DNA of 64,000 nt. Source: Escherichia coli (GTDB taxonomy: Bacteria > Pseudomonadota > Gammaproteobacteria > Enterobacterales > Enterobacteriaceae). The position numbers were made by a program, and so were the translations under genes. Of the stretch, positions 52,347 through 52,989 are shown in pieces (position 1 is the first letter of the stretch; the number at the start of each line of letters is the position of its first letter). The stretch lies in assembly GCF_003334335.1 (NCBI RefSeq), contig NZ_QOWQ01000003.1. One strand, 5' to 3'. The notes under the pieces were generated by a model that worked only from the letters and a program-made list of their open reading frames with translations, was not told the DNA's origin and did not search any database.

Positions 52347-52384
52347 CACTGTATAAAAATCCTATACTGTACGTATCGACAGTT
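52347..52384. promoter_or_regulatory. Tandem LexA (SOS) boxes upstream of ydjM
   Basis: CACTGTATAAAAATCCTATA and TACTGTACGTATCGACAGTT, overlapping by 2 nt. The second matches CTGT-N8-ACAG exactly; the first is a weaker half-match. They end about 15 nt before the ydjM ATG. Confidence 0.65.
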
Positions 52385-52398
52385 TAGTGAGTTTTATC

Positions 52399-52989
52399 AT
52401 GACGGCGGAAGGTCACCTTCTCTTTTCTATTGCTTGTGCGGTATTTGCCAAAAATGCCGAGCTGACGCCCGTGCTGGCACAGGGTGACTGGTGGCATATT
52501 GTCCCTTCCGCAATCCTGACGTGTTTGTTACCGGACATCGATCACCCAAAGTCGTTTCTTGGGCAGCGATTAAAATGGATATCAAAACCGATCGCCCGCG
52601 CTTTTGGGCATCGTGGTTTTACCCACAGTCTGCTGGCGGTATTTGCGCTGCTGGCAACCTTTTACCTTAAGGTTCCGGAAGGCTGGTTCATTCCGGCTGA
52701 TGCGCTACAAGGAATGGTGCTGGGTTATTTGAGCCACATACTTGCCGATATGCTGACACCCGCCGGTGTTCCCCTGCTCTGGCCATGCCGCTGGCGTTTC
52801 CGCTTGCCTATCCTGGTTCCCCAAAAGGGCAACCAACTGGAACGTTTTATCTGCATGGCATTATTTGTCTGGTCGGTATGGATGCCCCATTCATTACCCG
52901 AGAACAGCGCTGTTCGTTGGTCATCGCAAATGATCAATACCTTGCAGATCCAGTTTCATCGGCTTATTAAGCATCAGGTTGAATACTAA
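52399..52989 (+). CDS. ydjM: LexA-regulated inner-membrane protein YdjM
   Basis: ORF track starts at GTG 52387; the ATG at 52399 (MTAEGH) gives 196 aa. Confidence 0.85.
   Translation: MTAEGHLLFSIACAVFAKNAELTPVLAQGDWWHIVPSAILTCLLPDIDHPKSFLGQRLKWISKPIARAFGHRGFTHSLLAVFALLATFYLKVPEGWFIPADALQGMVLGYLSHILADMLTPAGVPLLWPCRWRFRLPILVPQKGNQLERFICMALFVWSVWMPHSLPENSAVRWSSQMINTLQIQFHRLIKHQVEY

Follow-up and report, generated by a model that had tools for sequence, protein, structure and literature searches.

The ydjM gene of Escherichia coli is preceded by two LexA boxes that overlap at their ends, and the whole arrangement is very probably a LexA-repressed promoter in which a full proximal operator and a half-consensus distal operator meet at the -10 element. 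The tandem operators and the SOS control of ydjM have been known since 2000, and the analysis presented here adds to the known pair a comparative picture, a reading of the box junction as part of the promoter, and a conserved dyad further upstream. The features on which the argument rests are collected in Table 1.

Table 1. Features around the start of ydjM, in window coordinates
Feature	Position	Strand	Description
Intrinsic terminator hairpin of hxpB (yniC)	52238..52269	+	14-pair stem (9 G-C), then T-rich tail
Dyad GTTAC-N3-GTCAC	52324..52336		Both arms invariant in 81/81 sequences; 3-nt spacer varies
Weak -35-like hexamer TTCCGT	52340..52345	+	Predicted; TTCCGy conserved; TTCCGG in the outgroup locus L089
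Distal weak LexA box CACTGTATAAAAATCCTATA	52347..52366		Consensus left half-site, degenerate right arm CCTA; 13.18 bits, rank 2
-10-like hexamer TATACT	52363..52368	+	Predicted; straddles the box junction; 5/6 match to TATAAT
Proximal strong LexA box TACTGTACGTATCGACAGTT	52365..52384		Perfect CTGT-N8-ACAG; 14.87 bits, rank 1
Predicted transcription start	52375 (about 52374-52376)	+	7 nt downstream of TATACT
ydjM CDS, 196 aa	52399..52989	+	YdjM-family membrane-associated predicted metal-dependent hydrolase; annotation, Pfam and NCBIfam

The ydjM locus and its tandem LexA boxes

The window, by which we mean the whole 64-kb stretch of DNA that was analysed, is E. coli chromosome from the hxpB–ydjM–tcyP region, with the annotated gene order pfkB–ghoS–yniA–yniB–hxpB / ydjM / tcyP–ydjO–cedA–katE. 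A search of 5,426 complete E. coli genomes matched the 761 bp around the boxes in 5,424, several of the matches being 100% identical, and the region is annotated 'ydjM: metal-dependent hydrolase'. Compared with MG1655 there is one SNP in 2.5 kb, inside hxpB, and the DNA upstream of ydjM is identical (window position 52399 is MG1655 1810211); this is the same locus, without difference, as the E. coli K-12 ydjM (b1728) operator pair of Fernandez De Henestrosa et al. (2000). The encoded protein matches Pfam PF04307 (E 2.4e-35) and the NCBIfam equivalog NF008651 at 374 bits, above the curated cut-off of 216, and it carries the His/Asp motif set of the family, with H6, D46, D48, H71, H76 and H113 invariant across 50 diverse members. 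The start codon is taken to be the ATG at 52399 and not the GTG at 52387 that a mechanical list of open reading frames had offered, since orthologues all share the N-terminus MTAEGH and the bases before it vary.

The terminator of hxpB (Table 1) makes ydjM its own transcription unit. We note two further observations on the limits of this unit. At 52407-52421, 8 nt into the ydjM coding sequence, there is a hairpin with a T-run after it that resembles a terminator (GGAAGGTCACCTTCT CTTTTCTATT); with 0.2 such structures expected per region it is probably a chance match, although it could attenuate transcription. At the other end, the stretch from the ydjM stop to the start of tcyP (ydjN) (52990-53121) showed no intrinsic terminator, and it contains a promoter-like site at 53076-53103. 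Read-through from the SOS promoter of ydjM into this cystine transporter gene would be compatible with the sequence and is a possibility.

The upstream DNA reads ...GTG CACTGTATAAAAATCCTATA CTGTACGTATCGACAGTT TAGTGAGTTTTATC ATG, in which the two 20-mer boxes have 2 nt (TA) in common and 14 nt separate the end of the proximal box from the ydjM start codon. The first-pass annotation had described head-to-tail boxes overlapping by 2 nt and ending about 15 nt before the start, and this geometry is borne out. Its further description of both as CTGT-N8-ACAG-type boxes has to be amended, as it holds for one box only: a pattern search found the proximal core at 52367-52382 to be the sole CTGT-N8-ACAG in the 64 kb, and the distal core is CTGT-N8-CCTA, so that there is no second full palindrome and the distal site can be called only a half-site or weak box.

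A strict search for the 20-mer LexA consensus with up to three mismatches returned no match, and a position weight matrix was used instead, symmetrised and built from 18 verified E. coli operators (table in PMC3009722, in which ydjM is not included), with every position scored. This scoring, which had been proposed as a check on both sites, ranked the proximal box first at 14.87 bits and the distal box second at 13.18 bits among 63,981 positions, the next score being 10.96. Leave-one-out scores of the 18 verified operators run from 6.5 to 27.3 bits (median 20.0), and both ydjM boxes fall inside this range, in its lower third. The left half of the distal site, at 11.6 bits, compares with a median of 11.0 for real half-sites. 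Chance alone would give 0.17 sites of proximal grade and 0.43 of distal grade per window, and the maximum score of simulated windows has its 95th percentile at 16.97 bits; taken singly, each box is marginal and within chance expectation for 64 kb. As a pair the boxes are statistically enriched, two such sites no more than 25 bp apart having arisen in none of 300 Markov-simulated windows. The next-best sites in the window, at 29510-29529, 59786-59805, 2918-2937 and 15562-15581, score 10.0-11.0 bits (e.g. TGCTGTTTTCATAAAAAATA); they are at chance level (about 1.3 per window at or above 10.96 bits) and none contains a full CTGT-N8-ACAG.

Conservation of the boxes and predicted position of the promoter

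The comparison set comprised 80 Enterobacteriaceae species with a YdjM orthologue (76-98% identity), each represented by one genome. All 80 have the proximal box, at 11.4-22.9 bits, and 76 have a distal site scoring 8 bits or more at an offset of exactly 18 bp upstream; in the other four species the distal site scores below 8 bits. In the alignment, mean column identity is 0.49 for the intergenic DNA upstream of 52313 and 0.85-1.00 across the block 52314-52384. The proximal core is CTGT- or CTGG-N8-ACAG in all 81 aligned sequences (CTGG/CCAG being a tolerated variant), the distal CTGT is retained in 79 of the 81, and CCTA is invariant. The conservation is deep: Erwinia amylovora and one Pantoea species, both Erwiniaceae, have the same tandem layout as the Enterobacteriaceae.

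One explanation for the boxes would be that they are chance matches in A/T-rich intergenic DNA and without regulatory meaning. The single-site expectations and the random-window maximum given above would allow this for either box, but simulation produced no adjacent pair, the sites are conserved in more than 80 species against an identity of 0.49 in the flanking intergenic DNA, and LexA-dependent induction of ydjM has been published. The conservation and the expression data refute this reading, to which we assign a negligible probability.

More can be said of the distal half-site from an outgroup locus, L089, which comes from a soil metagenome and encodes a 63%-identical relative of YdjM. It has the proximal box, TATACT, TTCCGG and the upstream dyad at unchanged spacing, and its stretch matching the distal half-site is diverged and has no CTGT. 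Divergence of this spacer implies that the promoter spacer can vary as long as it is not under selection, and the conservation of CTGTAT throughout the Enterobacteriaceae and Erwiniaceae consequently argues for selection on the half-site. The conservation seen in the right arm of the distal box is confounded, since both the -10 element and the proximal box could account for it.

Among 5,423 E. coli genomes, 3,584 have an unchanged 52316-52401 segment, and a single-base difference accounts for most of the others; strain CFT073 has a T to C change at distal position 14, toward the family consensus. A single genome among the 5,423, that of strain NIPH17_0036 (L093; NZ_AP024561.1, 96541-96699), has a 7-bp deletion of AAATCCT, equivalent to window positions 52357-52363, that takes out the distal right arm and the start of TATACT, and this strain represents a natural operator/promoter variant.

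A strict sigma70 consensus scan of 52150-52450 found no promoter. A looser sigma70 score, a hexamer-frequency heuristic that is indicative only, placed the combination of TTCCGT, a 17-bp spacer and TATACT first in E. coli and likewise in about 70 of 82 species. The -35 hexamer matches the consensus at just two of six positions. TATACT is invariant in all 81 sequences, and L082, L083 and L089 have it too. No experimental ydjM start was found in the Cappable-seq and SMRT-Cappable-seq supplements or by a text search of the literature. With transcription predicted to start near 52375, which corresponds to about 1810187 in MG1655, the distal box would extend from about -28 to -9 and the proximal box from about -10 to +10; the -10 hexamer would sit on the 2-nt overlap of the boxes, the distal box covering its first 4 nt. 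An RNA element in the ydjM leader was also considered and was rejected as there was no Rfam match.

Another possibility is a promoter further upstream, with a -35 element GTTACA at 52324-52329, a 17-bp spacer and a -10 element CACTGT/TACTGT at 52347-52352, in which case the distal box would overlie the -10 element, leaving the proximal box, at about +6 to +25, as a roadblock downstream. GTTACA matches four of six positions, is invariant and stands exactly 17 bp before yACTGT in the Enterobacteriaceae and Erwiniaceae, and the upstream -10 position is among the top three candidates in 42 cases. Against this, the mean score of the upstream promoter is 5.15 compared with 8.31 for the TATACT promoter, the E. 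coli -10 hexamer would be CACTGT, a two-of-six match, and L089 has kept GTTACA with no -10-like sequence after it while keeping TTCCGG and TATACT. A better account of GTTAC is that it forms one arm of the variable-spacer dyad discussed below, and we consider a promoter at this position improbable.

SOS control and a model for repression

That ydjM belongs to the SOS response, as the first-pass annotation had supposed from the boxes, is established. A table of the E. coli LexA regulon includes the gene, described there as an 'inner membrane protein' (PMC6590174), and a review of LexA motif evolution (PMC4951493) cites Fernandez De Henestrosa et al. (2000) for an experimental report of its tandem LexA-binding sites. 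RNA-seq after AZT gave a 2.5-fold increase in ydjM, for which an HI of 9.0 is tabulated, and a comparison of wild type with lexA3 gave an 8.6-fold dependence on cleavable LexA (PMC11228462); the comparison of induction in a lexA(Ind-) strain and wild type that had been suggested as a check has in essence already been made. This 8.6-fold value is the highest LexA dependence among genes with an HI above 6.3 in that table, other genes of similar HI showing 1.7-6.9-fold (PMC11228462). So high a dependence would be in keeping with a part played by the second site, without proving it. In a time course, log2 induction of ydjM was 1.6-2.6, with 1.6 reached at the first time point after treatment (PMC11002266). 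For the Salmonella gene two boxes are given at distances 14 and 32, with HI values of 9.12 and 12.85 (PMC8072944), and these distances equal those measured here. The distal sequence CACTGTATAAAAATCCTATA has independently been called a LexA site at -52, and RegPrecise lists only one ydjM site (PMC4576408).

The likeliest mechanism is promoter occlusion by two LexA dimers bound to overlapping operators, one strong and one weak. In undamaged cells, one LexA dimer would occupy the strong proximal box and would probably aid a second dimer onto the weak distal box, the CTGT half-site of which is placed in the promoter spacer. Together both dimers would cover about -28 to +10 and so exclude RNA polymerase. 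DNA damage would then lead, through RecA-stimulated self-cleavage of LexA, to a freed promoter and transcription of ydjM. The distal right arm may read CCTA and not ACAG because the TA of the -10 element TATACT has to fall on these positions, and with the arm constrained in this way the weak site would be a compromise between operator and promoter.

A simpler reading is that the proximal box is the sole functional operator, the distal look-alike being kept as spacer and -10 sequence or for another binder, which would make ydjM an ordinary single-operator SOS gene. This would fit the right arm CCTA, which breaks the palindrome and contributes 1.6 bits, less than the weakest half-site (2.4) of the 18 verified operators; it would also fit the single RegPrecise site, the single ydjM value of 9.0 in published HI tables, and the lack of a scoring distal site in L089 and four Enterobacteriaceae species. 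However, CTGT has been retained in 79 of 81 sequences at a place where spacers normally drift, and where that of L089 has diverged, the register of distal to proximal box is fixed at 18 bp, and the distal site is the second-best matrix match in 64 kb. The published record points the same way, in that PMC4951493 gives the tandem sites as experimentally reported and the LexA dependence of ydjM is unusually high for an HI of 9. On balance we think it unlikely that the proximal box works alone, and we favour occlusion by two dimers.

There is precedent in the colicin operators for strong and weak boxes that overlap at their ends and are bound cooperatively (PMC4951493). The dual SOS boxes of the colicin genes (ColE operons, cka) resemble those of ydjM in combining a strong with a weak box that overlap at terminal nucleotides, and ydjM shows the same features in its 2-nt overlap, its unequal scores (14.87 and 13.18 bits) and the one degenerate arm of its weak site. 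At the colicin operators, expression of the lethal product is bistable, delayed and very tightly controlled, whereas ydjM is chromosomal, is induced early and has a product not known to be toxic. Cooperative binding at the ydjM boxes is proposed by analogy, the high LexA dependence being an indirect hint of it. A second comparison is with the lexA promoter, in which both boxes are full sites. Like ydjM, lexA has two adjacent LexA sites, and these are conserved across the Proteobacteria; tandem sites of the lexA type are 1-10 bp apart and do not overlap (PMC4951493), in contrast to the boxes of ydjM, which overlap and of which one is half-consensus. In the ydjM operator one and a half LexA sites are joined to a predicted -10 element, which makes it a clear natural case of such an arrangement.

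The upstream dyad and the YdjM family

The conserved block does not end at the distal box. About 30 bp of DNA upstream of it (52314-52346) are also conserved, and within this stretch is the dyad of Table 1, which has the family form GTTAC-N3-GT(C/A)AC and a mean column identity of 0.96. It is retained in Erwinia, Pantoea and L089, and is a perfect palindrome in eight species and in L089. The dyad is distinct from the LexA motif. It lies directly against the weak -35 and would be centred at about -45 from the predicted start. A GTGAC pentamer occurs 10 bp further upstream in most species and has been lost in E. coli (AAGAG).

Invariant arms around a variable spacer are the signature of a dimeric DNA-binding protein, and on this pattern the dyad may be the site for a second regulator. 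We tentatively raise the possibility, which we hold to be less than even, that this regulator is an activator and that ydjM requires a second signal, e.g. envelope or membrane stress, in addition to LexA cleavage. A promoter with two inputs would fit the weak basal and reporter expression of ydjM, and would fit a product predicted to be a membrane-embedded metal-dependent hydrolase of (phospho)lipid type, without a solved structural homologue.

The family context is of two kinds. In Staphylococcus aureus a YdjM-domain membrane protein is encoded in the LexA-controlled operon SAOUHSC_02424-02422, which differs from ydjM in having a Gram-positive motif, CGAAAATATGTTCG, as a single box, and in grouping the gene with UDPGP and HlyIII genes; this literature-based case suggests a recurrent link of the YdjM family with the SOS response. 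No LexA motif of gamma, Gram-positive or alpha type was found at 10 distant YdjM relatives, a biased sample of mostly low-GC genomes, several of about 1.2 Mb or less. YdjM-family genes occur in genomes of 16-35% GC (L085, L087, L088, L091 and L094-L097), two of them small (about 0.35 and 1.2 Mb), and distant relatives, which have no LexA box, often adjoin tRNA synthetase genes. Their genomic setting suggests that the low-GC relatives may have a housekeeping membrane role independent of SOS. A separate observation concerns the top match in the representative search, P0121, a protein of 7,287 aa with 105 stretches that match residues 34-78 of YdjM. It is apparently one giant array of a PDIDH-containing segment, and may represent an unusual repeat protein or an artefact of prediction.

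The remark in the first-pass annotation that the part played by YdjM in the damage response is not obvious still holds, as the protein was called 'poorly characterized' as late as 2024. With the operators already known, the remaining interest lies in the biochemical role of YdjM, a membrane hydrolase-like protein that is connected with DNA damage in S. aureus as well as in E. coli. The upstream dyad hints at a second input into the ydjM promoter, and such an input, if real, would link the SOS response to membrane remodelling.
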